This document shows positions 3,972 to 43,661 of a stretch of 64,000 bases of DNA, piece after piece. Numbering within the stretch: position 1 is the first letter of the stretch; each line of letters opens with the position of its first letter. The notes below the pieces were generated by a model. The model was not told the DNA's origin, searched no databases, and saw only the letters and a program-made list of their open reading frames with translations. Source of the stretch: Pirellulales bacterium (GTDB lineage Bacteria > Planctomycetota > Planctomycetia > Pirellulales > JADZDJ01); contig CAWGBP010000014.1 in the NCBI GenBank assembly GCA_963820835.1, positions 5,715 to 69,714 of the forward strand, read 5' to 3'. Position numbers and translations under genes: made by a program.

Positions 3972-4006
3972 ATCACCTCTTCACCTCTTCACCTAGTCAT
4001 CCGTTC

Positions 4007-5005: not shown

Positions 5006-5044
5006 CCGGTTTCGCGTCGATCGGCCGCTCTAATGTACCCGCCG

Positions 5045-6589
5045 TCACGTCCGAAATCGTGGCAGGAACAGATCGAATTGCGAGCCGTGCTTCGAAGGCG
5101 CCGAACATTCGATCCAGCCTTGCAATTGCTCGACAATCGCCGCGACTAGCGACAGGCCCAACTGCACCAAATGATTGGCGGGTTTGGCGCCAAAGCTATT
5201 GATGCCAAACGTGGAATCGAACAACAGCGCCCGCATCGTCGGCTTCATGCCTTTGCCGCTGTCGCCAATTCGCAATCGCACGAACTCGCCGGCACGGCTG
5301 CCGTGGTGCTCGTCGACGTCGGCAGCTGCAATGGTGACGTTTTCGGCTTCGATGCACCAGCTCCCGCCGCGCGGCATGGCATCTTGAGAGTTCAGCGCCA
5401 ATTCCAAAAGCGCCTGCCCCAAGAGCAGCTCATCGGCGGCGACGTCCCATAAATCGGCCGCGGGCTTGTATGCCAGGGCAATATTGGCGTTCATACGCGG
5501 CGATATTTCACGCAAGAACTTCGGCAGAAACAGGCCCAAATCGAGTTCCTTCATTTGTCCCGTCGGACGACCGGCAAGCGACGAGAACATCGTCAATCGT
5601 TGTGCCAACTCAGCGGCTTGCTGCGCGGCAAGTTCGACTTGTTCGAGCCGCCGATGCGTATCGCTTTGCTCTTGAACTTCAGTCAGCGCAAGCGATGTGT
5701 TGGTCAGTATGCCGCTGAGCAAATTCGTTAACGGATGTGCCAATCCGCCGGCTAAGCGGCTAATGGCTTCCATCTTTTGAGCGCGCTCTTTGCGCTGGTC
5801 AATCTGGCGGCGGAGGCGATCGACTTCCAATCGCCCGCTGATGTTTCGCAAAGTCAACACTGCGCCCAATAGCTCTCCTCGCGAATCGCGAATCGGCGAA
5901 ATCGTCCCTTCGATGGGCTCGCCTCCGCCCGAGGTCGAAATCGCCCAAGCCGTATCGGGCAAATCGGTTCGAGCGCCCGTCGTTGCAACCTTATCGAGCA
6001 GGTCATCCAGGGGAATTGCTCCTCCGGCCGAAACCAGGTTGCAAACCGCCATCACGCTTTGTCCGACCGCGGCATCGCTCAACCAACCGGTCATGTCTTC
6101 CGCGGCCCGATTCATAAATCGGATCTTCTTCGTCGGATCCAAGGCGATGATCGACTCGTTGATCCCGTTGTGAATCGCCGCCAGCCAACGCTCGGTCTCC
6201 TCCAGTTTTTGTTCCGCGCGGTGCTTGGCAACGGCCATTTCGATAGTCGTCTGCAACTCGCGCTCTTCATAGGGCTTGATCAAGTAGCCAAATGCCTCGG
6301 TTTCGCTTGCCCGCGCCACCGTATCCGGATCGGAAAACGCCGACATGTAGACGACCGGAACTCCAAATTGCTTGCGAATGCTGCGCACCGCCGCAACGCC
6401 ATCGGAATTTCCCTTCAAATGGATATCCATGAGCACCAGATCGGGCCGATGGCGCCGGGCTTTTTCAATCGCCTCGGCCGCGGAGGAGGCAATGCCCGAT
6501 ACTTCGTATCCAAATTGCTCCAGCTCATTTTGAATTGCGGTGGCCACTAAGCGCTCGTCTTCGACCACTAGAATTTGAGTTGCCGACAT
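5045..6589 (-). CDS. Receiver-PAS-histidine kinase-like hybrid protein
   Basis: N-terminal REC (ILVVEDE, DLVLMDI, YLIKPY), PAS, H-box LAGGLAH, HATPase with D-x-G-x-G; G2 box degenerate. Confidence 0.88.
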   Translation of the reverse strand: MSATQILVVEDERLVATAIQNELEQFGYEVSGIASSAAEAIEKARRHRPDLVLMDIHLKGNSDGVAAVRSIRKQFGVPVVYMSAFSDPDTVARASETEAFGYLIKPYEERELQTTIEMAVAKHRAEQKLEETERWLAAIHNGINESIIALDPTKKIRFMNRAAEDMTGWLSDAAVGQSVMAVCNLVSAGGAIPLDDLLDKVATTGARTDLPDTAWAISTSGGGEPIEGTISPIRDSRGELLGAVLTLRNISGRLEVDRLRRQIDQRKERAQKMEAISRLAGGLAHPLTNLLSGILTNTSLALTEVQEQSDTHRRLEQVELAAQQAAELAQRLTMFSSLAGRPTGQMKELDLGLFLPKFLREISPRMNANIALAYKPAADLWDVAADELLLGQALLELALNSQDAMPRGGSWCIEAENVTIAAADVDEHHGSRAGEFVRLRIGDSGKGMKPTMRALLFDSTFGINSFGAKPANHLVQLGLSLVAAIVEQLQGWIECSAPSKHGSQFDLFLPRFRT

Positions 6590-6623
6590 GGGTACACCTT
6601 TTCGTGATATAAAATAAATGAAT

Positions 6624-7760
6624 TCAGTTCTTTTCTGAGAATGCTATTTGCGCACGCGTGCCGTGCTGATTCGACCATTGCAGCTCTCCACCCAACTGAT
6701 CACACAGCGCCTGCACAATCGCCAGCCCAATGCCGCTTTGGCGCGGTGCTTCGTTCGGCGTAAAGCCGACGCCATCGTCGGCAACGGATAAACACAATTG
6801 GCCGTTCTGGCGATGCAGCTCGACTCGAACCTCGCCCGATTTCCCATTGGGGAACGCGTATTTCAGCGCGTTGGAAACCAATTCATTGACGACGAGTGCA
6901 CAGGGTACAAGCTGATCGATGTTCAGCGTTGTTTGATCGACCGAGACAGTGCAAGTGACGTTTCCCGCCCCGCCGTAATACGATCGCAATAGCTCTTGCG
7001 TCAATTGTTTGAAATATGCCGCCAGATCGATCTCGGTGAGGTTCGGCGCGCCGTACAATCGCTGATGAACCATCGCAATCGCTCGCACCCGATGCTGGCA
7101 CTCCTTAAACACGTCGCGCGATGCGCGATCTTGAATTTTGCTGCCTTGCAAGCTGAGCAAACTGGTGATGATCTGCAAATTGTTTTTGACGCGATGATTG
7201 AGCTCGCGAATGAGTATTTCCTTCTCTTTGAGCGATAATTCCATGTGGCCCAGCGCCACGCGCAGCTTGCCTTCCGATTCGATCAGCGCCGCCGCCGCCG
7301 CCTCACGATCGCCAATCTCCCGCCGCAGCGATTGATTCGCCGTGGCAAGTTCCGCGGTGCGCTGCTGTACGCGAGCGTCGAGCACGCTGTTGGCCTCTTG
7401 CAAGCGCAGCGCAATGTGTTGGTACCTGTCCTGCAAATAGCAAATTAAAAGTGCGACGAACCCAAAAATGAGAAACCGCGTCAGGTCGGCAACGTCCAAC
7501 AAAATAGAGAAGACCGGCGGGATGATGAAAAAATCGACAGCGAGCGTCGAAACAACTGTCGCCAATACTGCCGGCCCTTTTCCGCACCACCAGGCGACCG
7601 CAGCAATCGCAGCAAAGTACAAATCGGTGGGCGCTTCGTGCAGTGGGGGCAAATAAAATGTCAGCGCAGTCGCCGCCGCCACTGCCAGAACACTCACGGA
7701 ATACGCCAAATACGGGCGCTCCCGCAATTGCCCCATCTGAACCGTGGCGGTTAGGTTCAT
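6624..7760 (-). CDS. Membrane sensor histidine kinase (DUF4118-like TM region, HisKA_2/HWE-type)
   Basis: ELNHRVKNNLQII H-box, NELVSNALKYAF, DDGVG, GIGL; four N-terminal TM helices. Confidence 0.9.
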   Translation of the reverse strand: MNLTATVQMGQLRERPYLAYSVSVLAVAAATALTFYLPPLHEAPTDLYFAAIAAVAWWCGKGPAVLATVVSTLAVDFFIIPPVFSILLDVADLTRFLIFGFVALLICYLQDRYQHIALRLQEANSVLDARVQQRTAELATANQSLRREIGDREAAAAALIESEGKLRVALGHMELSLKEKEILIRELNHRVKNNLQIITSLLSLQGSKIQDRASRDVFKECQHRVRAIAMVHQRLYGAPNLTEIDLAAYFKQLTQELLRSYYGGAGNVTCTVSVDQTTLNIDQLVPCALVVNELVSNALKYAFPNGKSGEVRVELHRQNGQLCLSVADDGVGFTPNEAPRQSGIGLAIVQALCDQLGGELQWSNQHGTRAQIAFSEKN

Positions 7761-8171
7761 AATGCACCCGCGGTTCGTTTGAGTTTTACAAACTCGGCGG
7801 CGACGGAACGAATACTTCGAATCTCCGCTCGGCAGTTCAGCCTGACACGAGGTTCGACTGGCTTCAAGAGCTTATTTCGGAGAGCTGTCGATTCGAAGGA
7901 TTGTTGCAATCGCCAATTCTTGAGCACCGACCAATTTTAAGCGTCTCGGGAAGAGAAACGGGTTGAATGCGGTATTTGAGCGAGATACGACCAATCTACA
8001 CCCTAATACTTTTACGAAGCATATATTGGAGATGTTCACGACTGTGTTCAAACCCTACTGGAACGCTTGCTGCGCCGCGTTTTATAATCAAGGCAGCAGA
8101 TTCAGCGCGCTCCGCACCCTCCAGCCCGCCCCTCTCCCAACGAAAGACGGGGGAATGCCAAAGGATTCGTC

Positions 8172-8576
8172 ATGCCCGTGCAGATGGAATTGTCGCGGAT
8201 CATTATCAGCGAAATTAACGACCAGCAGGTTATTTACCTGAAAGAGGTCGAAGGCGATCGCACGTTTCCAATTCTCATCGGCATTTTCGAGGCAACCAGC
8301 ATCGACCGGCGCGTAAAGCAGCATCATTCGCCGCGGCCGCTGACGCACGATTTGCTCGTGAACATTGTCGATCAGCTCGGGGGCGAACTGCAGGATGTCG
8401 TAATCAGCGAACTGAAAGAGCACACGTACTTCGCGCTGATTCGTGTGCGCAAGGAAGGAGAACTGATTGAGATCGACGCCCGGCCGTCGGATGCCATCGC
8501 GGTGGCCGTGACGACCGATCCGCCGTTGCCGATTTACGTGGCGGAAGAAGTGCTCAACGACGTGCTGGGGGAATGA
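8172..8576 (+). CDS. Bifunctional nuclease family protein (DUF151)
   Basis: FPILIGIFEA, RPLTHDL and IDARPSDAIA motifs. Confidence 0.92.
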   Translation: MPVQMELSRIIISEINDQQVIYLKEVEGDRTFPILIGIFEATSIDRRVKQHHSPRPLTHDLLVNIVDQLGGELQDVVISELKEHTYFALIRVRKEGELIEIDARPSDAIAVAVTTDPPLPIYVAEEVLNDVLGE

Positions 8577-8662
8577 AAGCAGAAGGCAAAAAGCAGAAAG
8601 CAGAATAACAAAACACTGGCTGTGTGCAATTTCTGCCTTCTGCAGTCTGCCTTCTGCCTTTG
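8577..8662. repeat. Inverted pair of 7-bp tandem repeats (aagcaga)n / (ttctgcc)n between convergent genes; possible bidirectional terminator
   Basis: Direct reading; the 23-mer ttctgcagtctgccttctgcctt recurs exactly at 28786-28808. Confidence 0.7.
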
Positions 8663-8663
8663 G

Positions 8664-10431
8664 TCAATTGCGGGCGAAGGTTTTCTTCAAGCAGGCCAGC
8701 GCCGTTTGGCCGGCGTTGCCATCGACCAGCACGTTGACGCGGACTTCGCTCGTGCTCATTAGATCGACGTTGATGCCTGCATCCGAGAGCGAGCGGAACA
8801 AGCCCAGCGCCACGCCACTGTGGCTGCGCATGCCGATGCCTTGCACCGAAATCTTGTCAATCTTGGGCGAACTGGTCACCGGGCCGCACCCGGAATCGCG
8901 GGCAACTTTTTCGGCGATCTCTATGCTTTTGGCCAGGTTTTTTTCTGGCACGGTGAACGTAAGGTTCGCTTTGCCGGCGCGGCTGTAGCTTTGCACGATC
9001 ATATCGACAAAGATGCCGGCGGCGGCGATTTCTTTGAACAGCGTGGCCGCGGTACCGGGGCGATCGGGAATTTCGTCAATCGAAACACGGGCTTGGGCTT
9101 CGTCGAGCGAGATTTCGTCGATCGTCAAATCTTCCATGCCTTGCAGTTCGCGAACGATTTCGAGTTCGCTGGTGACGATGGCGTGCTGCGCCGGAATCGC
9201 CGGGCTTGCCGTTGCGCGGGTCCTTATCCAGACCAAATGCCGCATGCGCGGCTCGCAGCGCGGCGGCGGCTTGGTCGCGGGCCACGAGCACGCTGATTTT
9301 GATTTCGCTGGTCGTGATGGTTTCGATGTTCACACCGGCATCGCCCAGTGCCTGGAAGAATTTCTGAGCTACGCCGGTTTGCCGCGCCATGCCGAGACCG
9401 ACGACCGAAAGCTTCGCTACGTTGTCGTCGTGTGATACACCGCCGGCGCCCAACTCGGCCACAGCTTCGCGGGCGGCTTCCATAGTGATCGGCACATCAT
9501 CGCGCGGCACCGTGAACGAAATATCTGCCTTGCCGCCGGCGCTAACGTTTTGCACGATCATATCGACCGCAACATTGCGCTTGGCGATGCGCGAAAAAAT
9601 GGAATGGCTCATTCCGGGTTTGTCTGGCACTCCTTCGATGGTGATGCGGGCTTCGTCTTTCACTAGCGCCGCGCCGCACACTGGCTGTGTGGCCGATTCC
9701 GGATCGCCGACAATCATCGTGCCCGGCACGTCGCTAAAGCTCGATCGCACGTGTACTGGCACGCCGAACTTTTTGGCGAACTCGATCGAGCGGCCGTGCA
9801 TGACGCCCGCGCCGAGGCTGGCCAGCTCGAGCATTTCATCGTAGCTGATGCGTTTCATTCGACGGGCTTCGGGCAGTTGTCGAGGATCGGTCGTGTAAAC
9901 ACCATCGACGTCGGTATAAATTTCGCAGGTATCTGCCCGTAGCACGGCTGCTAAGGCGACGGCGGTTGTATCGCTGCCTCCGCGGCCCAGCGTTGTGATA
10001 TTGAAATTCTCGTCGATGCCCTGGAAGCCTGCGGCAATGACGATGTTTCCCTCGTCGAGCAGCTCACGCATACGCTCGGTCGAAATGGAATGAATGCGGG
10101 CTTTGGTGTGAGTGCTGTCGGTGCGAATGCCGATTTGAGCTCCGGTCAAGCTCACGGCTTTGTGCCCCAGCGATTGAATGGCCATGGCCATTAGGGCCAC
10201 GCTGACTTGCTCGCCGGTCGAGAGGAGCATGTCCATTTCGCGAGCGTTTGGGCGCTGGGTGATCTGCCCGGCTAAATCGACCAAATGATCCGTTTGATGC
10301 CCCATGGCGCTGACGACCATGACCACTTGGTTGCCCTGCTGCTGAGTGCGAATGGCTTTGCGAGCGGCGGCCAGAATTTTTTGGCTATCGGCAACGCTGG
10401 TTCCGCCGAATTTTTGAACAACGATGGGCAT
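8664..10431 (-). CDS. lysC: Aspartate kinase with multiple ACT domains (frameshift at about 9200)
   Basis: VQKFGGTSV, TTLGRGGSDTTA, YTDVDGVYTTDPR; ACT repeats continue in ORF 8664-9245. Confidence 0.93.
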
Positions 10432-10521
10432 GAAGCAGGGTTCAGGGGTCAGGGTTCAGGAATCAGAAATTTTGGCCGGTCGTCTTTATTATCGCTCGCG
10501 GTTTGGCAGTAAATTGCTAAG

Positions 10522-10618
10522 AGCGTCTGACAAAATGATCTGGGAGAGGGGGACAGTCCCATTTTGCTCCGCGGACTCCGCAAAATCGGGACGGTCCCCG
10601 ATCATTTTGTCAGACGCT
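10522..10618. repeat. 97-bp palindromic MITE/REP-like element
   Basis: Perfect 19-bp terminal inverted repeat agcgtctgacaaaatgatc / gatcattttgtcagacgct with inner stem ggggacagtcccattttgc...gcaaaatcgggacggtcccc. Confidence 0.8.
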
Positions 10619-11826
10619 ATAATTGCTTTTGCCCAAAAAATATCCCATCAGCCGCCAGCCTTCTTCGAACGCCAACGATGATTTGGCGGCGGCAATTTCG
10701 TCATAGGTCGTCGCCGCGTCGGGCTGGATGCCTGCCCCGGCCATAGTAAATGGCACCGCGCCGTGGTTGTGGGTTTTTAAACGCAATGGGGTAGGATGAT
10801 CGGGGGATATTAGAATGCGGTAATCTCCCTGGTTTTTCAAGGCCTCGTGAAGCGGCCCGACAATGTGGCGATCAATCTCTTCCAGCGATTTCACTTTCTC
10901 TTCGATAATGCCCATGTGCGAGGCTTCATCGGTCGCTTCGACGTGGACGCAAATCAAATCGGTGTGCGCAAGGGCTTCGATGGCGTAGCGCCCCTTCGCG
11001 GCGTAATCGGTATCGATGTAACCGGTTGCGCCGGGCACCTCGATTCGCTGCCAGCCGACAAGTGTGGCCAGGCCGCGGAGCAAATCGACGGCGGTAATCA
11101 TCGTTCCGTGAACATGATATATCTGTTGGAACGGTTGTAATTTTGGGACGCGACCAAGGCCCCAAAGCCATATGTTCGTAGCGGGCAGCTTATCCGCGGC
11201 GCGGCGGGCCTTGTTTACCGCATGATCGGCGAACAGATCGACACTTTCGGCCATTAAACGATTGAGCAAGTCGCTCCCCGGGCCGCGCGGGTGATCGTGC
11301 AGCACCGATTTACCGGTCAGATCGTGCGGCGGTGTGGCCCGCGTATCGGCCGAAAATGGCGCGGATTCTTGGCTCCGCGATACACGAGCAAATTGCGATA
11401 ACTCACACCGGGAAAGAATTGCAACTGATCGCTGCCGATGCGCTCTTGTGCGGTCGTCAAAAGCTGCCTGGCTTCTTCGGTGGAAATGTGGCCGGCGGTG
11501 AAATCGCGCATCGTTTGGTTTTCGACCGTGACCAAATTGCAGCGAATGGCCCAATCATCCGGCCCAAGCTCGATGCCTTGCGCGGCGGCTTCGAGCGGCG
11601 CGCGGCCGGTGAAATGCGCAAGCGGGTTGTAGCCCAACAGGCTCAGGCAGGCGACATCGGACCCGGCCGGGAGCGACGGGGGTACGTTGTTGGAGCGCCC
11701 AACGACGCCGGCTTTCGCCACTTCATCCATGGCCGGCGTGTGCGCCGCCTGAAATGGCGTTTTGCCGCCGTGCGATTCTTGCGGCTCGTCGGCCGCTCCG
11801 TCGGGAATGATCAGGGCGTATTTCAT
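10610..11826 (-). CDS. apgM: Cofactor-independent phosphoglycerate mutase family protein (ApgM-like, proposed homoserine kinase type); frameshift at about 11370
   Basis: IIPDGAAD, AGSDVA, FTGRAPLEA, HVEATDEASH, SPDHPTP. Confidence 0.85.
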
Positions 11827-11872
11827 GAACAAGGGGGCAGGATGCAGGGCGCAGGGCGCAGAAAGCAGAAAT

Positions 11873-13170
11873 TCATTCTTGCACTCGCAATTTTACGCTA
11901 ATGGGGCGCACGCTGGACATGCGGTCAATGGCTTCGGTGGCGGCTTCGACATTTTTTTCCGTTGCAGTGTGAGTCATGATCACCAGCGGCGTAAACCCGT
12001 CGGGCGTGCGGCCAAGCTCATGCTGAATGACCGAGGCAATCGAAATATTGTTCTTTCCCAAAATGCCTGCGATATCGCCCAGCACGCCAGGTTTGTCGGC
12101 CGCCATGAACCGCAAGTAAAACTTGCCGCTCGACTGGCCGTGATCGAGCGCCCGCACGGCAGCGCCTTGGCTGGACCACAATTCCAAATTGCGGAAGGTG
12201 ATGGGAGCGCGGCCGACGACCATGTCGATCATGTCGGCAACGACGGCCGAGGCAGTCGGCATTTGGCCGGCTCCCTGACCGTGAAACATCAGCGGACCGA
12301 CGGCATCGCCCACCACACGAATGGCGTTGAACGCGCCGCGCACTTCGGCCAGCGGCGCGCCGATTTTGACTAGCATCGGCGAGACTTGCAAATCGACGGC
12401 GCCAGCTTGCAATTGAGCCATGGCAATGAGCTTAATGCGGTAGCCAAGCTCTTTGGCATAGTGTAAATCGGCCGTTTCCAGGTTGTCGATGCCGCGGCGG
12501 GGGATGTCGCGCCAGTTGACGCGCACGCCGAAGGCCAAATGAGCCAAGATGGCCAGCTTTTGCGTGGCATCGCTTCCATCGACATCGAGCGTTGGGTCGG
12601 CTTCGGCGTAGCCGAGTTTTTGAGCCTCGTGCACGGCCGTTTCGTAGTCGGCCCCGTGCTCTTCCATTTGCGTGAGAATGAAGTTGCTGGTGCCGTTCAA
12701 GATGCCGCGGATCGATTGAATCTGGTTGGCCGACAAGCACTGGCTGATGTTGGCGATGATCGGAATGCCGCCGGCCACCGCTGCTTCGAAGGCAATGCAC
12801 AGATCGAGCGCGCGGGCGCGATCGAACAATTCGGGGCCATGTTCGGCCAGCAGGGCCTTGTTGGCCGTGACCACGTCTTTGCCGCTATCGAGCAGCTCGA
12901 GCATGATTTCGCGCGCAGGCTCCAGGCCGCCGACCAGGTGCGCGACGACTTTGATTTCCGGATTGCGCGTGATGCTTTTCAGATCGGTGGTGAGGACGCC
13001 GCACGGCAAATCGAGGCCGCGTGTTTTGTCGCCATCGCGCACGACGACCGATTCCAGGACGATTTTGCGCCGGTGTGCCGCGCCGCCCGTTCGCCATGCT
13101 CGATCAACAGCCGCGCCACGCCGGTGCCGACGGTTCCCATTCCGACGATGGCGACTTTGGTTTGATCCAT
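11873..13170 (-). CDS. hom: Homoserine dehydrogenase with C-terminal ACT domain (frameshift at about 13065)
   Basis: VGMGTVGTG, VVTANKA, FEAAVAGGIP, GILNGT, GYAEADPTLDVDG. Confidence 0.94.
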
Positions 13171-34822: not shown

Positions 34823-35872
34823 TTAAAGAGATTTGGAGTTGCTAGAGCTTTCTTTTCGCAGCATGTCGTCCAAGACGGACTGCAGTTTGCCTGCTGCCAT
34901 GGTCGTAGCCAAGTTTCCCTCGCGATCGATCACAAAAACTGCCGGCACGGCCCGAATGGCCCACTTGCTCGAAAACTCGCTCTCCAAACCTTTTTCCTGA
35001 AAAAACTGCGGCCAGGTAATTTTGTGTTTGGCGACGCAGTCCTTAAACTCAGACTTTGCATCGGGCGAATCCAAGGTTACACCGACAAACTCGACGCCGC
35101 GGTCCTTGTAGTCCGCGCATAACTGGTTGTTCTCGGACATCGATGCAACGCATCCGCCGCACCAAGTGGCCCAGAAATCGACGACGACAATTTTGCCTTT
35201 GAGATTCTTGATCGAGATCGGTTTGCCGCTGATCAAATCGTTAAACGAGAGCTCGAATGGTTTCCCGATTCCGGCCACTTGCACCAGATTGCTCTTGGCG
35301 AGCGTGCCATACATCGTGTCGGTATAAGGTTCCGCAGCGGTGCGCTCGAACGACGGCACTTGATCTTCCAGTCTTTTAGCACTGCGGCCAAAATTAAAGA
35401 GCAACTCCGCTCCGCGTTCGTCCTGAGGCGCTGCCTGAAGAAAATCGTCGACTGCCGCCTTGTCAGACTCAAACGACAATCCCACCCAAGCGCACGATTC
35501 CGCGCGAATATAGAGCAGATCCGCCCGGCGGCCTGAATCGGTCGTTTCCTGCAACATGGGAGCGAGTTCGCCGTCCAGCTCTTTGAGTTGGCCCGCATGC
35601 GCAAAGCTCAGCCAGCGGTCCATCATCAGCTTCCAGACATCGGCGTTTTGCGGGAATTGTTTATACAGAGCCGCGATTCGGGCGTTGCGCTTCTTTTGGA
35701 AGGCCATTATTTGCTCGTTGAACGATTCGCGATAAGCGAAATCGCCCATCCGCGCATCATCAAATTGGGGCTGTGGAATCGCCTCGATCCCGGCGATTTC
35801 TTTGGTCACCGGATCCTTCGAGCAGCCTGCGACGAGCGCCAGTACCGCGCAAACAAAAAGAACCTTCATCAT
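34823..35872 (-). CDS. TlpA-family disulfide reductase lipoprotein
   Basis: Lipobox VAGC; VVDFWATWCGGC; AVPAVFVIDREG. Confidence 0.88.
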   Translation of the reverse strand: MMKVLFVCAVLALVAGCSKDPVTKEIAGIEAIPQPQFDDARMGDFAYRESFNEQIMAFQKKRNARIAALYKQFPQNADVWKLMMDRWLSFAHAGQLKELDGELAPMLQETTDSGRRADLLYIRAESCAWVGLSFESDKAAVDDFLQAAPQDERGAELLFNFGRSAKRLEDQVPSFERTAAEPYTDTMYGTLAKSNLVQVAGIGKPFELSFNDLISGKPISIKNLKGKIVVVDFWATWCGGCVASMSENNQLCADYKDRGVEFVGVTLDSPDAKSEFKDCVAKHKITWPQFFQEKGLESEFSSKWAIRAVPAVFVIDREGNLATTMAAGKLQSVLDDMLRKESSSNSKSL

Positions 35873-36025
35873 TTCACTCCGTTGAAATGCCTCGACGCGA
35901 GCACTGACACTATAAAACCAAATGTCGCTCTTCTGTCAACAACAGTTCAAAAGACGATTAACGCTGACCGCCGGACTGCCCGTGGGCTGTGTTGTTTATC
36001 TCTGCGAGCAAGCCTGGATCATCCC

Positions 36026-36142
36026 AACGCCGCAGGCGATGCATTCCATAGCCCAGGGTCGCGCTAGCGCACCCTGGGATCAAATAATGCGACTACCCGC
36101 ATTACTCCGTACATTTTTGTTATTGGAACCCTGCAAGGGTTC
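36026..36142. repeat. REP-like hairpin cluster downstream of tnpA
   Basis: cgccgcaggcg; cccagggtcgcgctagcgcaccctggg; gaaccctgcaagggttc. Confidence 0.75.
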
Positions 36143-36171
36143 TACAAAATGACGAAGGCATTCGAAATCAT

Positions 36172-36627
36172 TCAATCCCAAACATACCGTTCATCGATCG
36201 GTACGTCATACTTCGCACACAATCGCCGGAACTCATCTTGAAAATTCTCATGGCGATGATGTTCTTCCTGATGGCGAATGTATTCAGTCAGTTGTTCAAC
36301 GTGGCCAGGACTGACGGAAAACGCTCCATAGCCATCTTGCCAATAAAAATCGCCCAACGATGGCTTCTCTTGTTTAATCCATTTCGATGAATCGCGTTTA
36401 AGTTCTCGCAATAGGTCAGCGACGTTGATTTGCTTTCCGAACCTAAACAGCAAATGCACATGATCTTCAACGCCACCGACGATCAACGACGGACAATCCA
36501 AATTCCGCGTGATTCCAGCCAAATACGCGTGGCACTTTGATCGAAGCTCCGCATCCTTGAAAAATGGTCGTCGATACTTAGTCGAGAATACGATGTGCAA
36601 ATAGATTTGCACTAACGATTGGCCCAT
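36172..36627 (-). mobile_element. tnpA: IS200-like / REP-associated HUH (Y1) tyrosine transposase
   Basis: HIVFSTK, EDHVHLL (HUH), WQDGYGAFSVS, YIRHQ, DERYVWD; no tnpB; hairpins on both sides. Confidence 0.9.
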
Positions 36628-36662
36628 GCTCCATCCCTTCCCTTTGCTCGCTGGCACATGTG

Positions 36663-36786
36663 CAACCGCTTCGCGGTTGAAATCCGAAAGGAAAAGAATA
36701 CGTTCTCGCGATCTTCGTTCCCAGGGTGGCATCCCGGCGGCCGGGACTTACCCTGGGCTTTGAAGTTTTGCCCCTGCGGGGCAAAA
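36663..36786. repeat. REP-like hairpin cluster upstream of tnpA (mirror of 36026-36142)
   Basis: caaccgcttcgcggttg; cccagggt...accctgggct; ttttgcccctgcggggcaaaa. Confidence 0.75.
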
Positions 36787-36862
36787 TCCGCGCTTTCCCA
36801 CCTCCGCAGGCATTGCATTCTGAAGCCCATGTCGAAGATTCGCCGCGCCCAGAGTCTCATCT

Positions 36863-37876
36863 CTACTGCGATTCCCGCGCAAGCCTAAAACCAAGCGATA
36901 ACCAGCAATTCGTCGGTCGAGCAGCGGAACGATACGCGCACCGGTTTGCCACGGCTGGAAAGCAGAAGCCTCCTCCGCGATTTGCTCTTCCGTCCGACAT
37001 AGCAGGACCGTACGGATCGTCCTCCCGCGCTTCCTTGTAATAATGCCGGTCATAGTAATCACCACACCACTGCTGAACATTCCCGAGCATGTCGTATAAA
37101 CCGAAAGCATTCGGTCGAAAGCTCCCGACCGGGGCCGTCAACGCAAATCCGTCGTTTGTCTTTTCTGCCAATCGCCTATTCCGATACGCCTTCAATAAGG
37201 CTTGATCGGCAATGTTTGCGATTTCGACAAGCTTGTCCGCGTCGTCCCCGTTATAAAACCGTGTCGTCGTGCCAGCCCGGCAAGCGTATTCCCACTGCGC
37301 CTCGCTTGGCAGGCAATAATTTTTCCCTTCTTTCTTGCTCAGCCAATCGCAAAAGGCCATCGCGTCGTTCCAGCTCACGTTCACGACGGGGTGATTGCTC
37401 GTTTGCCCAGCAAAACCCCAATCCATCGGGGTGCCGCCGCGGTCCCGCCTTGAAACTCTCCCGTCCGCCCCCCAGCGTTCTCCCAGATTGGAATTTTTTT
37501 CCGCGTCGCTTCGGTAATTGGCGTCCTTGCAGAACGTTTGAAACTGCCCAACAGTCACCGGATAGATCGCCAAATAATAAGGCCGGGTCAACCGCACTTT
37601 GTGCAGCAATTCCTTATCGCCATCGTCGCGCCCTACCTCCGTTTCGGGCGATCCCATCATGAATTCGCCCGGTGGAATGAGTACGAATTTCATATCTAAG
37701 GAATTTATGTCGGCGACTTTGCAATCCAGATACGTGGCCCACTCTTGCTGTTTTTCCTTGATCTGCTGCTGGCCGAACGGCACTGTGAGCAATCCCGGCG
37801 GATCGGCCAATGCCCACGATGCGCTCCCTGCAACGCTTGCCAGAAGTGCCACGGCCACAAAAGTGATGCTTCGCAT
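36863..37876 (-). CDS. Secreted formylglycine-generating-enzyme (FGE-sulfatase) domain protein
   Basis: IPPGEFMMGS, HPVVNVSWNDA, LPSEAQWEYACRAG, PNAFGLYDMLGNV, GFRLAR. Confidence 0.92.
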   Translation of the reverse strand: MRSITFVAVALLASVAGSASWALADPPGLLTVPFGQQQIKEKQQEWATYLDCKVADINSLDMKFVLIPPGEFMMGSPETEVGRDDGDKELLHKVRLTRPYYLAIYPVTVGQFQTFCKDANYRSDAEKNSNLGERWGADGRVSRRDRGGTPMDWGFAGQTSNHPVVNVSWNDAMAFCDWLSKKEGKNYCLPSEAQWEYACRAGTTTRFYNGDDADKLVEIANIADQALLKAYRNRRLAEKTNDGFALTAPVGSFRPNAFGLYDMLGNVQQWCGDYYDRHYYKEAREDDPYGPAMSDGRANRGGGFCFPAVANRCAYRSAARPTNCWLSLGFRLARESQ

Positions 37877-37961
37877 AATGATGCCTCGATTCATTGCCGC
37901 AAGGATATCCTGGATGTGGACAACGTTCTACGTGTTAAAAAATTGGCGGCCTAACCCGAAC

Positions 37962-38017
37962 TGAATACTCAGGCAGCCTCTCGATTATTCGGGCAAAACG
38001 TATTTGTCGGCCAAGCC
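37962..38017 (+). repeat. Tripartite repeated site, copy 1
   Basis: Boxes end in CA at 37975, 37995 and 38013, then AGCC; near-direct repeat of 39482-39538. Confidence 0.75.
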
Positions 38018-38078
38018 GTGTCTCACCCGCAATTGCGCCTGAAGTCAAAGAAGCTGAGCCGGCGCCATCAGGTTAAAA

Positions 38079-38097
38079 CCCGCCCATCGGCTACAAT
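38079..38097 (+). promoter_or_regulatory. 19-bp repeated promoter-like motif CCCGCCCATCGGCTACAAT, copy 1
   Basis: Identical at 38841 and 39078; TACAAT 6 nt before an ATG. Confidence 0.75.
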
Positions 38098-38103
38098 GCG
38101 GGC

Positions 38104-38334
38104 ATGAACGCCGCAGAGCTAGTCCGTTTCATGGACGACTACTACCGGATTTCGGTAGCCTTGACGGAATTCAAAATCGTCAATGCCTATCTGGACGATC
38201 CGGTCTTCCCAACCAAAATCGTGTGTGAATGTGCCAACGGCCAGAAGATCGAGCATCTATTCCCAGAAAATGCGCCGACAGAGCTGCGGCTTGAGGTATG
38301 GCAATACTGGGCCAGAATGAAGGGGCTTAAATAG
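38104..38334 (+). CDS. Small hypothetical protein (76 aa)
   Basis: Starts right after the repeated motif and stops right before tripartite site 2. Confidence 0.65.
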   Translation: MNAAELVRFMDDYYRISVALTEFKIVNAYLDDPVFPTKIVCECANGQKIEHLFPENAPTELRLEVWQYWARMKGLK

Positions 38335-38397
38335 GCCGCGCAAGTTTTTGGGCAGAAGTTTTAGTTTTTGGGCAACTCGGAGTTTTTAGGCAAAGCC
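38335..38397 (+). repeat. Tripartite repeated site, copy 2
   Basis: Boxes end at 38354, 38374 and 38392, then AAGCC; last 35 bp identical to 39436-39470. Confidence 0.8.
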
Positions 38398-38399
38398 GC

Positions 38400-38555
38400 A
38401 TGGCCACATTCACTCTCACCTGCCGCCGCTGCAAGACTAAGATGATCGGCCGCGCCACCGAATCGTCTCATGGGACGTGGCTTTGCCCCACTTGCCGTGA
38501 AAAGGAAACGCCACCGCAACCCAAAAAGTTGCTGGCCAAAAAACGCGACCGCTAA
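38400..38555 (+). CDS. 51-aa zinc-ribbon microprotein
   Basis: MATFTLTCRRCKTKM...WLCPTCREK; fills the gap between sites 2 and 3 exactly. Confidence 0.6.
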   Translation: MATFTLTCRRCKTKMIGRATESSHGTWLCPTCREKETPPQPKKLLAKKRDR

Positions 38556-38618
38556 GCCGCGCGAATATTTATACAGAAATCGGATTTTCTGAACAAAACC
38601 GATTATTTATGCAAAGCC
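38556..38618 (+). repeat. Tripartite repeated site, copy 3 (divergent)
   Basis: Boxes end at 38575, 38595 and 38613, then AAGCC. Confidence 0.7.
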
Positions 38619-38630
38619 GGGGAGCAAGCC

Positions 38631-38825
38631 ATGAAAAGACTATTCGCCTTTCGCGACCTATTCTGGCTCGCTCTAGTGATTGCGCTCTCCATTTGTTAGT
38701 GGATGGACCATCGCAGGCTCACTGCTGATTCATTCGACAATTTGCAATTGACCCACGGCAGCGGCCTCCTGCGCATCGATCAGCCCGACGATCAAGCTAA
38801 GCCTTCAGGTGGCGGGTTGTTCTAG
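38631..38825 (+). pseudogene. Small membrane-anchored protein with an in-frame TAG
   Basis: MKRLFAFRDLFWLALVIALSIC*WMDHRR...; GGGGAG RBS; TAG at 38697 (probably from TGG). Confidence 0.5.
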
Positions 38826-38840
38826 TCGCGCGCCGAGTCC

Positions 38841-38859
38841 CCCGCCCATCGGCTACAAT
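38841..38859 (+). promoter_or_regulatory. 19-bp repeated promoter-like motif, copy 2
   Basis: Identical 19-mer, 7 nt before ATG 38867. Confidence 0.75.
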
Positions 38860-38866
38860 CCGGGGT

Positions 38867-39076
38867 ATGGCTCAAAAGATAGGAACCATAATTCAAATTC
38901 TGTCTTTGGTCGTATTGGCGACTTCAGCGACCACATTTTTTGTTTTGCGAGGCTTACCGCTGAGCACTGCCGGGCGGTTACCGAACCTATATTTGATGTT
39001 CGCCGCGATCGGCTGTTGGATCATTGGCAGTATCGTCAAAACAATCTCTAGGGCTCCGCCACCATTCACGAAATAG
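38867..39076 (+). CDS. Small 2-TM membrane protein (69 aa)
   Basis: Two hydrophobic segments; follows the repeated motif. Confidence 0.65.
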   Translation: MAQKIGTIIQILSLVVLATSATTFFVLRGLPLSTAGRLPNLYLMFAAIGCWIIGSIVKTISRAPPPFTK

Positions 39077-39077
39077 C

Positions 39078-39096
39078 CCCGCCCATCGGCTACAAT
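39078..39096 (+). promoter_or_regulatory. 19-bp repeated promoter-like motif, copy 3
   Basis: Identical 19-mer, 6 nt before ATG 39103. Confidence 0.75.
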
Positions 39097-39102
39097 GCGG
39101 AC

Positions 39103-39426
39103 ATGGAAATAAAGCAAGCGCCTACGTCCGGCTCTGAACTACTTGGGCGACTATTTCATACGCTCGCGCGGGCAACGTCAGTCAGCGGCTTTCTTATGGC
39201 GCTGGCACGGTTCATCTACCGTCCGCACCTTGGTTCCAACCACATGGACGACAGATACCTTATTGCCTCCGGGCTGATTGGGCTTGGCATTGATTTGGTT
39301 TTGCTGTCGCTCTTGTTGTGCGCCGTGGCGGCGAGTTGGAACCTAAAGGTCAAGCGACGGATTCGGCCGTATGTCATTCTCGATATTGTGTCGCTTGGAA
39401 TAATGTTCCTCTCGCCACCGACTTAA
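39103..39426 (+). CDS. Small 3-TM membrane protein (107 aa)
   Basis: Three hydrophobic segments; stop abuts site 4. Confidence 0.65.
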   Translation: MEIKQAPTSGSELLGRLFHTLARATSVSGFLMALARFIYRPHLGSNHMDDRYLIASGLIGLGIDLVLLSLLLCAVAASWNLKVKRRIRPYVILDIVSLGIMFLSPPT

Positions 39427-39427
39427 T

Positions 39428-39470
39428 GCCGCTTGAGTTTTTGGGCAACTCGGAGTTTTTAGGCAAAGCC
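39428..39470 (+). repeat. Repeated site, copy 4 (two boxes)
   Basis: agtttttgggcaactcggagtttttaggcaaagcc identical to 38363-38397. Confidence 0.8.
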
Positions 39471-39481
39471 CGAGCGCACCC

Positions 39482-39538
39482 TGATTATTCGGGCAGCCGC
39501 GCCATTATTCGGGCAAAACGGATTTATCGGGCAAAGCC
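39482..39538 (+). repeat. Tripartite repeated site, copy 5
   Basis: Boxes end at 39495, 39515 and 39533, then AAGCC. Confidence 0.78.
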
Positions 39539-39540
39539 CC

Positions 39541-39569
39541 TTGACAAATGTTCATGTGTACACTACCAT
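39541..39569 (+). promoter_or_regulatory. Sigma70-type promoter with a palindromic operator in the spacer
   Basis: TTGACA-17 bp-TACCAT; TGTTC-ATGT-GTACA at 39549-39562. Confidence 0.5.
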
Positions 39570-39981
39570 AAATTCGCGACTGCGGCATTCCGCAGTTCGA
39601 TCTTTGGCAATTGATAAAGGTTCTCACCACAATCGCCCCGGCGGCCAGCTTGCGCTGGGCTGAATTTACGCGCCGAGGCCAACTCGTTTTGTCCGCGGCG
39701 TGTGCCATTCGCAAGCTGCGATCTCGAATGACTTTACGATTGACGGCCCGACGCACAAATCGAGTCGCGATTGACAGAATGCTCCGACATTTGTCTCTCG
39801 CCGACCTCTGAGCTTTCTGAATTCGCGGCTTCCGCACGCGACATTCGCGGACAAAATGGCAGAGTTTTGCCCGGAAATAAAAATCCCAGGCAAAATGCCG
39901 CCGTCCTGCGGCAAATGATCCGAGAAATCTGCATCGCACCATCGCAGATTTGTCTTTTTGTCACTGCGCCCCGGGGCGGCC

Positions 39982-41045
39982 CTACTCCCACACCGCACCA
40001 CTCGGCCCCTTCGACAATCTGCCCGATCGGCCAGCTTTCGCAGCCGCAGTTAGCAAGCTGCTCTCGAATGCTTTCGGCATAGTACGGACTGACGACCAGC
40101 ACTAGGCCGAGGCCTTGATTGAAGACTTGATCCATTTCGGCCTGATCGACCTCACCCAATTTTTGCATCCATGTGAAAACTGGCGGCACTGGCCAAGAGC
40201 CGCGTCGAATGATGGCGCGACGATTTTCCGGAATGATCCGCCCCAGGTTCTCTAACAACCCGCCGCCAGTGATGTGTGCAATGCCATGCACAACTTCTTT
40301 GACCGTGTAGTGGCTCAAAATCTCGCGTACCGCTTGGCATAAATATGCGTGGGCTCAGCAAGCACGTCGCCAACCGGGCCGCCAAGTTCATCGACCACGT
40401 CGCTCGGGCTTGAACCCAGCAATCTCGAACACGATCTTTCGCGCCAGGCTGTAGCCGTTGGAGTGCAACCCGCTGGAGGCCACGCCGATGACCACATCAT
40501 CCGCGGCAATCGCCCGGCCGTCGATGATTTTCTTGCGTTCGACCACCCCGACGCAGAACCCGGCCAGGTCGTAGTCGCCGCGCTGGTACAAGATCGGGCA
40601 TGATGGCGGTTTCGCCCCCCAAAAGCGCGCAATCGGCCTCAACGCAACCGTTGCTAATGCCTGTGACGATTTGCTCCAAAAGCGGCGGATCGTCGTGCGA
40701 CATGGCCACGTAATCGAGGAAAAAAAGCGGCTCCGCCCCGCAGCACAAGGCGTCGTTCACGCTCATCGCCACCAGATCGATGCCCACCGTATCATGCCGC
40801 CCGCAAAGTTGGGCCACTTTCAGCTTGGTGCCCACGCCATCGGTGCAGCTTACCAAAACAGGGTCTTCATACTTTCGAGCGAACAGATGATTCGCGAAAT
40901 CGAGTTGAAACAAGCCCGCAAATCCGCCGTCGAGCGGAATCACCCGAGGCGTAAAGGTGCGGTGCAAAAGCGGAGGCAGCCGACCCATGCTCTGGCGATA
41001 GAGTTCCAGATCGACTCCGGCGTCTTTGTAGGTGGCCTTAGCCAT
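39982..41045 (-). CDS. purM: Phosphoribosylformylglycinamidine cyclo-ligase (AIR synthetase), several frameshifts
   Basis: [49 protein letters not shown]. Confidence 0.93.
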
Positions 41046-41474
41046 GCAGCTTCCCAAGTGGTGGCGGCGAGCCGCGATTTTAAGTTGCGCCAGTGCCACC
41101 TCGCTAGGGGCGACCGCGAATTACGTCGATTCGTTCGCCCGCTCAATGAGCGAAAGATTTCCAATCCGCAATCGGCAAATGAGAATATCCGCCGCAGTTG
41201 CCGTAGCTACCCTGGGAACCGTCCACTTTTTCCCCCCTCCGGCAAACTCGCCGCATGCTGTTCGACCGGCGGGAATCTGGTATTCTCTGAAAACGAAACA
41301 ACAGTGACGAGCCAACCGATTTTTTGCCTTTCGAGGTGAAGTTTTTTAAACTCGCGGCTGCCGCGCCGCAATCAAGTGGTATGTTACTTGGGCAGTCGGT
41401 TCACAACGACTGGCTTCCGGTAACTTCCACCAGCGTCAATCTCGCCGGCGCTGGCCTTGTCGAGGATGGAAGCC

Positions 41475-43661
41475 ATGCCCACAGATCGTCCGCATCGACG
41501 ACCCACTTCGCCCCGAGAAAGGGAATCGGCCTTGCTACGCCCCGCGACCTACGCACATCCTGCGCTGCAGTTTACGCATCCGCTGCCGTATGGCGCCATT
41601 TTGCACGATGGTGGCGTGCAGTTCGTTGTCTTCAGCCGCTCAGCCACAGCCATGCGGCTATTGCTGTACAACCGGGTCGACGATCCCGAGCCGGAGGACG
41701 TCATCGAATTCGATGGCGACACCGACCGCTGGGGCGACATTTGGAGCGTTTACGTGCCGGGCATTAGCGCCGGCCAGTTGTATCACTTCCAGTGCGACGG
41801 GCCGTACGATCCTGAGCACGGCATGCGGTTCAATAGCCGGGCGCGATTGATCGACCCCTACGCCAAAGCGCTCGCCGGCCACTTCCTACCGAGCGAAGAC
41901 GGACTGGTGCGGCCGCCGAAGTGCGTTGTGATCGACGATAATTTCGATTGGGAAACCGACCGCCATTTGAAGCGCCCGCTGGCCGACACGATCATTTATG
42001 AAATGCACGTGCGCGGTTTCACGCGCGACGGCACCAGCGGCGCGGATCATCCCGGCACATACTTGGGAGTAATCGAAAAGATCCCCTACCTGAAGTCGCT
42101 CGGGGTGACGGCCGTCGAGCTAATGCCGGTGTTGGAATATCCCATGGAATCCCCCTGGGGCCATAAGCTCGATCGGCCGAACTATTGGGGATACGACCCG
42201 CTGGCATTCTTTGCGCCGCACCAAGGCTACGCGGCCAGCAGCGAGCCCGGCGCTCAGGTGGTCGAATTCAAGCAAATGGTGAAGGCCCTGCACGAAGCCG
42301 GCATCGAAGTCATTCTCGATGTCGTGTTTAACCACACCGCCGAAGGCAATGAACTAGGTCCCACGCTTAGCTTCAAAGGACTGGAAAACCGCGTCTACTA
42401 CATGCTCGGTAACGGTGGCAGCTTTTACCGCAACTTCACCGGTTGCGGCAACACGATCAACGGAAATCATCCCATCGTCCGAGAAATGCTCTTCTTGTGC
42501 CTTCGGCACTGGGTGCAAACGTATCACATCGATGGTTTCCGCTTCGATTTGGCCTCGATCTTAAGCCGCGACCGCAATGGCGAAATCATTCCTAATCCGC
42601 CCGTCGTGGAAATGATTGCCGAAGACCCGCTCTTGTCGGATACCAAGGTCATTGCCGAAGCGTGGGATGCCGCCGGGGCGTATCAAGTCGGCTCGTTCGC
42701 TAATCTGCGCTGGGCCGAATGGAACGGGCGCTATCGCGACGACGTGCGGCGCTATTGGCGCGGCGATACCCATCTGATTGGCGATTTGGCCACGCGGCTG
42801 GCCGGTTCGGCCGATTTGTACCAGGCCGGCGGACGGCAACCGTACCACAGCATTAATTTCGTCACCAGCCACGACGGTTTCACCCTGAACGATTTGGTCA
42901 GCTATTCGCACAAGCATAATGAGGATAACGGCGAAGGAAATCGCGACGGCGACGATAACGGCTATGGCGCTAATTACGGCGTCGAAGGGCCGACGCGAAA
43001 ATTGGCGATCGAAGCGGTGCGACAGCGGCAAATCAAGAATTTTTTGGCCACGCTGCTCTTAAGCCAAGGCGTGCCGATGCTCCTTGCAGGCGATGAATGC
43101 CGGCGCACTCAGCGCGGCAACAACAATGCCTATTGCCAAGACAATCAGATTTCTTGGTTCGATTGGTCACTGGTGGATAAAAACGCCGATCTGGTGCGAT
43201 TCGTCAAGGGACTGATCGCGCTGCGGCGCAGCAACCCCAGCCTGCGGCGGCGAAGCTTCTTAAGCGGCATTCCGACTAAGCAGGGAGAGCTGCCCGACGT
43301 AAGCTGGTTCAATGCCATGGGACGCGCCGTCGATTGGCGCGGCCTCGAAGAGCAATCGCTGGTGTGCGTTTTTGGCGCGGTTTCGCGGCCGCGCGCCGAG
43401 CGCGAACCGACTGAAGCCATTCGCCTGGAAAACGGCCAAGATGTGGCACGCAGCGTGATGCTGATGTTGAATCCATGCGGACAGGCGCGCGAATTCGTCA
43501 TTCCCGATTTGGTGCGCACCCTTCGCTGGCGCAAGTTTATCGACACCGCCGCCGCGCCGCCGGCCGATATCTATCCGGCGCTCGACGGACCTGAGCCGCC
43601 GCTGCGCGGTCCTATACTCGTGCCTGAGCGCTCGCTCATCTGCTACCTGGCCGAAAAGTAA
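41475..43661 (+). CDS. glgX: Glycogen debranching enzyme / isoamylase
   Basis: YEMHVRGFT, NYWGYDP, DVVFNHTAEG, DGFRFDLAS, IAEAWD, SHDGFTL. Confidence 0.95.
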   Translation: MPTDRPHRRPTSPRERESALLRPATYAHPALQFTHPLPYGAILHDGGVQFVVFSRSATAMRLLLYNRVDDPEPEDVIEFDGDTDRWGDIWSVYVPGISAGQLYHFQCDGPYDPEHGMRFNSRARLIDPYAKALAGHFLPSEDGLVRPPKCVVIDDNFDWETDRHLKRPLADTIIYEMHVRGFTRDGTSGADHPGTYLGVIEKIPYLKSLGVTAVELMPVLEYPMESPWGHKLDRPNYWGYDPLAFFAPHQGYAASSEPGAQVVEFKQMVKALHEAGIEVILDVVFNHTAEGNELGPTLSFKGLENRVYYMLGNGGSFYRNFTGCGNTINGNHPIVREMLFLCLRHWVQTYHIDGFRFDLASILSRDRNGEIIPNPPVVEMIAEDPLLSDTKVIAEAWDAAGAYQVGSFANLRWAEWNGRYRDDVRRYWRGDTHLIGDLATRLAGSADLYQAGGRQPYHSINFVTSHDGFTLNDLVSYSHKHNEDNGEGNRDGDDNGYGANYGVEGPTRKLAIEAVRQRQIKNFLATLLLSQGVPMLLAGDECRRTQRGNNNAYCQDNQISWFDWSLVDKNADLVRFVKGLIALRRSNPSLRRRSFLSGIPTKQGELPDVSWFNAMGRAVDWRGLEEQSLVCVFGAVSRPRAEREPTEAIRLENGQDVARSVMLMLNPCGQAREFVIPDLVRTLRWRKFIDTAAAPPADIYPALDGPEPPLRGPILVPERSLICYLAEK

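Follow-up and report, generated by a model that had tools for sequence, protein, structure and literature searches.

The question raised by this locus is why a string of short open reading frames (ORFs) should be punctuated by five copies of one site, all in the same orientation. The locus (positions 37,962 to 39,538) lies in a 64,000-nt stretch of the genome of a Pirellulales bacterium (assembly GCA_963820835.1, contig CAWGBP010000014.1, positions 5,715 to 69,714), hereafter called the window. An initial annotation had offered two readings, an integron-analogous gene-capture array and a stack of one-ended elements, with the responsible enzyme encoded at some other place. The second appears to be essentially right: we put at roughly 75% the probability that the five sites are stacked solo ends, each built of several boxes, of a transposon family related to the insertion sequence (IS) family IS5, whose transposase combines SWIM and DDE_Tnp_1 domains and is found in intact relatives. 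The apparent exotic cassette array would then come down to the asymmetric three-box end of an abundant, generically annotated transposon family.

Direct reading of the sequence recovered all five sites on the + strand (Table 1). In sites 1, 2, 3 and 5, three units whose ...CA ends are spaced 20 and then 18 nt apart are followed by AAGCC (AGCC in site 1), and site 4 keeps the last two units only. Three sequence flavours can be told apart: sites 2 and 4 are of type I (TTTTTGGGCA), site 3 is of type II (ATATTTATACA), and sites 1 and 5 are of type III (ATTATTCGGGCA). The 35-mer AGTTTTTGGGCAACTCGGAGTTTTTAGGCAAAGCC is common to sites 2 and 4 (38360-38397 vs 39433-39470, 97% identity over 38 nt), and a 54-nt stretch of sites 1 and 5 shows 83% identity. 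Sites 2, 3 and 4 begin with GCCGC, and the stop codons of the preceding ORFs lie 0-1 nt upstream, at 38334 (TAG), 38555 (TAA) and 39426 (TAA). No inverted repeat was found inside any of the five sites, which are arrays of direct repeats. The initial annotation had described the box spacing, the CA(A)AGCC end, the two-box fourth copy, the shared 35-mer, the near-repeats formed by sites 1 and 5, the abutting stop codons and the non-palindromic, uniformly direct arrangement, and was accurate in each of these respects. With at most one mismatch, TTNGGCAAAGCC has 8 matches in the window vs 2.3 +/- 1.4 in shuffled sequences, none of 100 shuffles reaching 8; the site motif is real and far beyond chance. 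Across 74 type I copies, information content is 0.83-1.63 bits per position within the boxes, compared with 0.37-0.61 in the spacers; for those copies that stem from other phyla, the search pattern had preset GGGCA of box 2 as well as box 3 with the terminus, whereas box 1 and the T-runs were free to vary.

The nature of the sites is indicated by intact relatives, in which the three-box sequence is one of the terminal inverted repeats (IRs), in keeping with the transposase end site that the initial annotation had seen in phased boxes next to a fixed terminus. Below, G000 denotes the genome holding the window (assembly 75.5% complete; window contig C14), G001-G010 are ten sister genomes of the same taxonomic family (11 family genomes with G000), and three loci bear the numbers L039 (G009:C145), L176 (G000:C46) and L178 (an acidobacterial locus). 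Intact elements have IRs of about 18 bp that start with GGCTTTGCC, a three-box end and a single-box end, and cargo that reads towards the three-box end; their target duplications measure 9 bp in Acidobacteriota and 10 bp in Planctomycetota. The element of G009:C145 (L039 1166-4534, 3,369 bp) has the IRs GGCTTTGCCTAAAAA at both ends, with the first 15 nt identical, and contains an open 427-aa SWIM + DDE_Tnp_1 transposase gene, a small zinc-ribbon ORF, a gene for an HTH_3 + Peptidase_M78 protein and a 175-aa ORF. Contig C145 ends exactly at the site and branches to C96 and C63 with 141-nt overlaps; the 10-mer GACGTTCGTG stands in the left flank of the element and, in the alternative contig, again just past the three-box end, with TGTAC directly behind it. 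In G000 itself, the element at C46 5090-10768 (5.7 kb) has IRs that agree at 16 of 18 positions, the 10-bp direct repeat CTATCAACGG on both sides and a truncated transposase inside. In L178, elements at 3918-7004 and 7014-12888 are each flanked by the 9-mer CGCGCGTGA, which also trails the last end; the IRs of the element at 7014-12888 are identical at all 18 positions, and two 100-bp copies that resemble miniature inverted-repeat transposable elements (MITEs) carry the same IR. Three junctions in L179 have AGCCCTTT(G) in common. Acidobacterial chains of elements thus share one target duplication.

The window sites resemble these termini. In sites 2 and 4, the last 18 nt (reverse complement of site 2, GGCTTTGCCTAAAAACTC) match the IR of the G009 element at 16 of 18 positions, and those of the degenerate site 1 match the IRs of intact elements at 12-14 of 18. 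Junctions were tallied as 57 distinct ones in the planctomycete family and 65 in other phyla; 8 of the latter have the form ...GGCAAAGCC-N8-10-GGCTTTGCC..., and more than 12 family tails, examined by eye, have the three-box end about 10 nt from TGTAC.

The enzyme that accompanies intact copies is a transposase. Neighbour clustering of those loci fetched from other phyla and viral contigs in which a site is present and the length is 2 kb or more placed a SWIM + DDE_Tnp_1 protein of about 430 aa within 2 kb of the site, on the box side, in 9 loci; a small HTH_3 protein likewise recurs in 9 site loci. The proteins of L039 (427 aa), L129, L079 and L117 match PF01609 with E 1e-17 to 1e-21 and also match SWIM. 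The best match of the transposase among all NCBIfam IS models is the IS5 family model NF033579 (106.5 and 98.1 bits), which lies below its curated cut-off of 140 bits, so that the transposase is related to IS5 but is no member by the NCBI rule. The nearest annotated plasmid genes, among 15 matches listed, belong to the ISPpa3 and ISPam2 families, with 67-77% of the query aligned at 22.6-26.8% identity, and by our own count the ISPpa3 IR GGCGTTGTTGCAGAAGTC, taken from the plasmid record, agrees with the family IR GGCTTTGCCCAAAAAGTC at 12 of 18 positions. The resemblance to IS903 seen in the initial annotation is in line with an IS5-related DDE transposase. PMC3281130 assigns ISPpa3a and ISPam2 to the IS5/IS903 group and gives them direct repeats of 9 bp and IRs 19-21 bp long. 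Related transposases are numerous, at least 6,745 proteins at E <= 1e-20 among 8,000 candidates scored, and where names are given they mostly read just "transposase". A search of literature listings found no description of the transposon family or of the motif, which offers a cheap annotation marker for both the elements and their solo ends. The transposase homologues of G000 are all damaged: that of C66 has an internal stop (TGA) and is followed by a degenerate end and then TGTAC, that of C46 aligns from residue 91 only, and that of C48 is a fragment.

Compared with known systems, the family resembles the IS903 group (ISPpa3 and ISPam2 of Paracoccus) in its DDE_Tnp_1 domain, in IRs of about 18 bp that start GGC.TTG and in the 9-bp duplication of its acidobacterial copies, the length listed for that group in a section of PMC3281130. 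It differs by an added N-terminal SWIM finger and low identity, by elements of 3-6 kb with cargo instead of about 1 kb, by asymmetric ends with three phased boxes against one, by 10-bp duplications in planctomycete copies, and by insertion beside TGTAC in promoter-like targets with chains that share one duplication.

Several transposase-binding repeats per end, unlike ends and a fixed orientation to the target are features of Tn7, Mu and Tn5053. This comparison concerns end architecture only, and the present family differs in having DDE_Tnp_1 rather than an rve/TnsB-type domain, duplications of 9-10 bp rather than 5 bp, and no accessory targeting genes among those identified in its elements. 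With solo IS ends and MITEs the window copies share the character of non-autonomous remnants that keep the IR, a kinship also apparent in the short copies of L178; they differ in that they are single ends, all pointing the same way in the stack and bordered by ORFs on either side. Three points are unusual: the pairing of an IS5-like enzyme with multi-repeat ends, the insertion into promoter spacers, and solo ends that are stacked and abut start codons. Features that set the family apart are the asymmetric three-box end, promoter-spacer targeting, chains with a shared duplication and the spread across phyla, in soil Planctomycetota and Acidobacteriota.

The scan for further copies that the initial annotation had suggested was productive within and beyond the family. 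Profiles trained on the sites of G000 itself were used; the five-site profile detected 31 copies (E <= 0.05) spread over 13 contigs in G000, 26 of them outside the window, and a calibrated sequence-only model gave 34. Sites were also found in six of the ten sister genomes (11 in G009, 9 in G005, 7 in G008, and 2 each in G001, G006 and G010), and the sequence-only model found none in G002, G003, G004 and G007; the distribution across the 11 genomes is patchy and copy number is variable. Copies of site 3 that are 93-98% identical occur at C26:153106, C26:157005, C24:303175 and on G005:C7, and copies of type II from different genera share 93-95% identity vs about 75% for purM. A scan of one genome per species with the pattern GGGCA-N8-10-TTTAGGCAAAGCC matched more than 116 loci, where by our own arithmetic about 50 chance matches are expected for this 18-base pattern. 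Among 118 loci fetched from other phyla and viral contigs, 67 have a full three-box site; most come from Acidobacteriota and from Planctomycetota outside the family. Two IMG/VR viral contigs carry the site. A phage link was considered and dropped, the PHROGs annotation around one of these two contigs being uninformative.

The five window sites are solo ends and not paired inverted ends with a duplication. No transposase gene lies in the window, and no single-box copies of type I-III termini were seen in G000. In the anatomy of such an end, ...CAAAGCC-3' (GGCTTTG... on the other strand) is taken as the cleaved terminus and forms the IR of about 18 bp together with the adjoining box; farther in, at 18 and 20 nt, come two more boxes, which are extra direct copies of the inner part of this IR, and the inner part and the boxes presumably bind the transposase. 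In the mechanism that we propose, insertion would be orientation-specific and would leave the target beside the new end, so that further copies could land beside a resident end. Deletions anchored at the terminus of an end may then have removed the single-box end and the transposase gene of the next element, leaving units of a cargo fragment and a three-box end stacked upstream of a promoter-like target at 39541-39569. Mosaic breakpoints lying exactly behind ...AAAGCC, both in G000 (C26:153429 vs C26:155746) and where G009 contig C145 branches, speak for this account. That site 1 is degenerate and site 4 truncated is as expected for remnants of different ages, and the stack is probably inert for transposition.

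Several observations weigh against this account. No 8-10-mer from the flanks of the window sites recurs beside an upstream terminus within the approximately 13 kb searched each way, and an inverted partner with a duplication was detected for only 2 of 35 ends in G000 (both of the C46 element); because partners and duplications are missing, the window holds no direct trace of transposition. TGTAC or GTATAC lies at 8-13 nt in only 7 of the 57 family junctions and in none of the 65 from other phyla, and the transposase scores below the cut-off of its best model, as given above. No transposase match at E <= 1e-10 was found in G005 (9 sites), G008 (7) or G001 (2), and such well-kept ends without an enzyme fit co-option or a different enzyme as well as they fit relics. 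In 6 of 57 family junctions, vs 1-2 of 57 at control offsets, an ORF of 35 aa or more starts with an ATG 0-3 nt past the terminus, and a second full end follows the first within 1-11 nt at three loci (window sites 4 and 5, C32 and G009:C6); if deletions ended at random, less regularity would be expected in either case. The ATG placement, the close double ends and the ends without detectable transposase keep alive the alternative that former transposon ends were co-opted as cis-regulatory modules, retained as upstream or outward promoter or operator elements for the micro-ORFs and promoters right behind them, with leaderless mRNAs made from the micro-ORFs. We regard this as unlikely, although more speaks for it: at C26:155746 and C43:12130 the terminus runs straight into motif B (TACAAT-N6-ATG), which is placed like the -10 box of a leaderless mRNA, a sigma-70-like promoter follows the site in the window, L032, L021 and L038, and outward promoters are reported in the termini of IS903-group elements in a passage of PMC3281130. 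What follows the terminus is nevertheless varied (an ATG at 0-3 nt, motif B, or a tail with a TGTAC-containing sigma-70-like promoter), and the distance to the next -10 box or ATG is about 0, 20 or 38 nt. The small neighbouring gene can lie on the opposite strand in Acidobacteriota, and no sigma-70-like promoter is predicted inside any site; a scan of 37800-40000 gave 2 promoter-like sequences vs 1.5 +/- 1.1 in shuffles, neither of them in a site. A bolder and distinctly doubtful extension is that a self-stacking transposon family could act as a transposase-based counterpart of integrons, with a regenerated target, head-to-tail pile-up, trimming anchored at the terminus, and ends that supply expression signals to leaderless micro-genes; such signals would explain the conservation of the ends in genomes without transposase.

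Capture of cassettes as in true integrons, with units of ORF plus site moved by a recombinase crossing over at ...AAAGCC, scarcely seems credible. The likeness is one of layout: compact ORFs are each followed by a site in the same orientation, identity between paralogous units stops exactly after ...AAAGCC (C26:153429 vs C26:155746), and cassette content differs between loci, no protein cluster joining the window ORFs to other site loci. Against this reading, G009:C145, G000:C46 and Acidobacteriota have the motif as ordinary IS ends in inverted pairs, with target duplications in intact DDE transposons, a pattern that the initial annotation had itself named as telling against it. The sites also lack palindromic or attC-like structure and there is no attI/Pc platform or nearby integrase; none of 17 PF00589 matches is on C14, the nearest to any site locus being about 17-20 kb away. 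Neither ORF3 and ORF4 nor ORF4 and ORF5 have a site between them. Clustering of 2,253 neighbouring ORFs from about 40 planctomycete-family loci gave no large family common to most (the largest cluster, by eye an ABC-transporter permease, spans 5 loci). Active one-ended transposition, by which a transposase acting in trans would move DNA from the three-box end to a variable second boundary and gather genes, is very improbable in our view. It would account for variable content with precise ends and for the 33 of 35 ends in G000 without a detected inverted partner and duplication, but no intact transposase was found in the G000 assembly (75.5% complete) and the units have no flanking duplications. 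To our knowledge, one-ended movement is not known for this family. The stack of solo transposon ends remains the preferred explanation, and its features are listed in Table 1.

Table 1. Features of the stacked-end locus in window coordinates (E values refer to the site profiles).
Feature	Position	Strand	Remarks
Site 1, degenerate three-box end, type III, terminus GGCCAAGCC	37962..38017	+	profile E 7e-08
Motif B, CCCGCCCATCGGCTACAAT-N6, in the position of a -10 box right before the ORF1 ATG	38079..38103	+	
ORF1, 76 aa, without family match	38104..38334	+	
Site 2, intact three-box end, type I	38335..38397	+	profile E 2.7e-12
ORF2, 51 aa, CxxC...CxxC zinc-ribbon-like, basic tail	38400..38555	+	Pfam zinc-ribbon matches weak, below cut-off
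Site 3, intact three-box end, type II	38556..38618	+	profile E 4.5e-09
ORF3, small, hydrophobic N-terminus, in-frame TAG at 38697-38699	38631..38825	+	frames read directly
Motif B copy 2 and ORF4 (38867-39076, 69 aa, hydrophobic)	38841..39076	+	
Motif B copy 3 and ORF5 (39103-39426, 107 aa, hydrophobic)	39078..39426	+	
Site 4, truncated end (last two boxes and terminus), type I	39428..39470	+	profile E 8e-08, model positions 21-63
Site 5, intact three-box end, type III, last of stack	39482..39538	+	profile E 6.4e-10
Site 5 flank, CCTTGACAAA, then sigma-70-like promoter TTGACA-17-TACCAT	39539..39569	+	10/12 consensus matches
CTTTGGCAATT, conserved motif downstream of this promoter type	39602..39612	+	5 further promoter + motif modules without site in G000

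Motif B in the form CCCGCCCATCGGCTACAAT-N6/7-ATG precedes ORF1, ORF4 and ORF5 (3 matches in the window vs 0.01 expected), and the genome of G000 has 12 exact copies of CATCGGCTACAAT and 14 of GGCTACAAT-N6-8-ATG. With ORF1 as query, no relative was found among metagenome contigs. The ATG of ORF2 lies 2 nt past the terminus of site 2, and a small CxxC...CPKC protein was noticed by eye beside the transposase in intact elements. ORF3 (MKRLFAFRDLFW...) reopens in the same frame past its TAG, and may be either a broken small gene or a readthrough candidate. Elsewhere in G000, sites are likewise embedded among small, tightly packed ORFs, which in many cases are hydrophobic; such strings often have motif B at the start, and box 1 usually contains or adjoins the end of an ORF. 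An RNA element was considered and rejected for the locus: Rfam returned only mir-964 over 36000-42000, which scored 26.4 bits (gathering score 100) and lies outside the sites, and no pairing common to the three flavours was seen by eye.

The flank at 39539-39569 is read as the remains of the insertion target, which resembles a promoter as do the targets of intact elements. It has GTGTACAC at 39556-39563, inside the promoter, and an uninterrupted paralogous promoter module, that is an empty site, is present at C7:~8000. Six such modules were found in G000 (C7:~8000, C50:~96650, C50:~123870, C53:~240800, C54:~15550 and window 39541-39612), each a strong sigma-70-like promoter with TGTACA/GTATAG and, about 35 nt downstream, CTTTGGCAATT. 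A CCGTTT-type repeat array accompanies five of the six, the window copy being the exception, and a transposon end stands only beside the window copy. A second exact copy of CCTTGACAAA lies at window position 48008, 8.5 kb downstream of site 5.

Downstream of the stack, purM occupies 39734-41099 on the - strand in three frames (40497-41099, 40388-40642 and 39734-40318); its relatives match across all three, which points to two frameshifts or assembly indels. The purM loci of 11 relatives (L006-L016, with longer stretches of G001, G002, G003 and G005 in L017-L020) have no site, nor has any of the best 80 metagenome purM loci, whose identity does not exceed 89%. About 840 bp separate purM from the conserved left-flank gene in G005, compared with 5.2 kb in the window, and the region between them is therefore variable. 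These 5.2 kb hold the stack and three genes (34823-37894) for proteins with Pfam matches to an AhpC/Redoxin-type thioredoxin fold, Y1_Tnp and FGE-sulfatase. The Y1_Tnp gene is IS200-like (PF01797, E 1e-25; 36172-36732, - strand), lies 1.2 kb from the stack and has one other copy in G000 (C42, 36% identity). A link of the sites to REP/RAYT systems through Y1 was examined and rejected, as the genome has only these two Y1 copies, neither is near the other site loci, and the sites are not palindromic.

The cargo of intact elements includes, in L039 (2856-4464), the HTH_3 + Peptidase_M78 protein, which is of the ImmA/IrrE type, followed by the 175-aa ORF, and in L176 (2323-4293) a 656-aa GHKL-type ATPase (HATPase_c_3). 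Genes of the ImmA/IrrE and GHKL types are often found in defence or toxin-antitoxin contexts.

Further repeats were encountered in G000. A segment of 5.8 kb that includes a micro-gene string and two sites within it occurs twice, on two contigs, the copies being 96% identical (C24:299929-305675 and C51:23226-28955). A second dispersed repeat of about 60 nt, which starts with TTCGTGACCAAGGACGAACTG, has 22 exact 18-mer copies (e.g. C26:166249, C43:11762 and C48:186728/187718), often lies beside micro-gene strings and in one case continues directly into motif B. Finally, 12 near-identical copies of GGAACGAAAGTC-GGCTTTGCGCATTTGATGCTGCC... (e.g. C4:23647, C5:41842 and C17:31045), found only via the common GGCTTTGC, suggest another multi-copy element.

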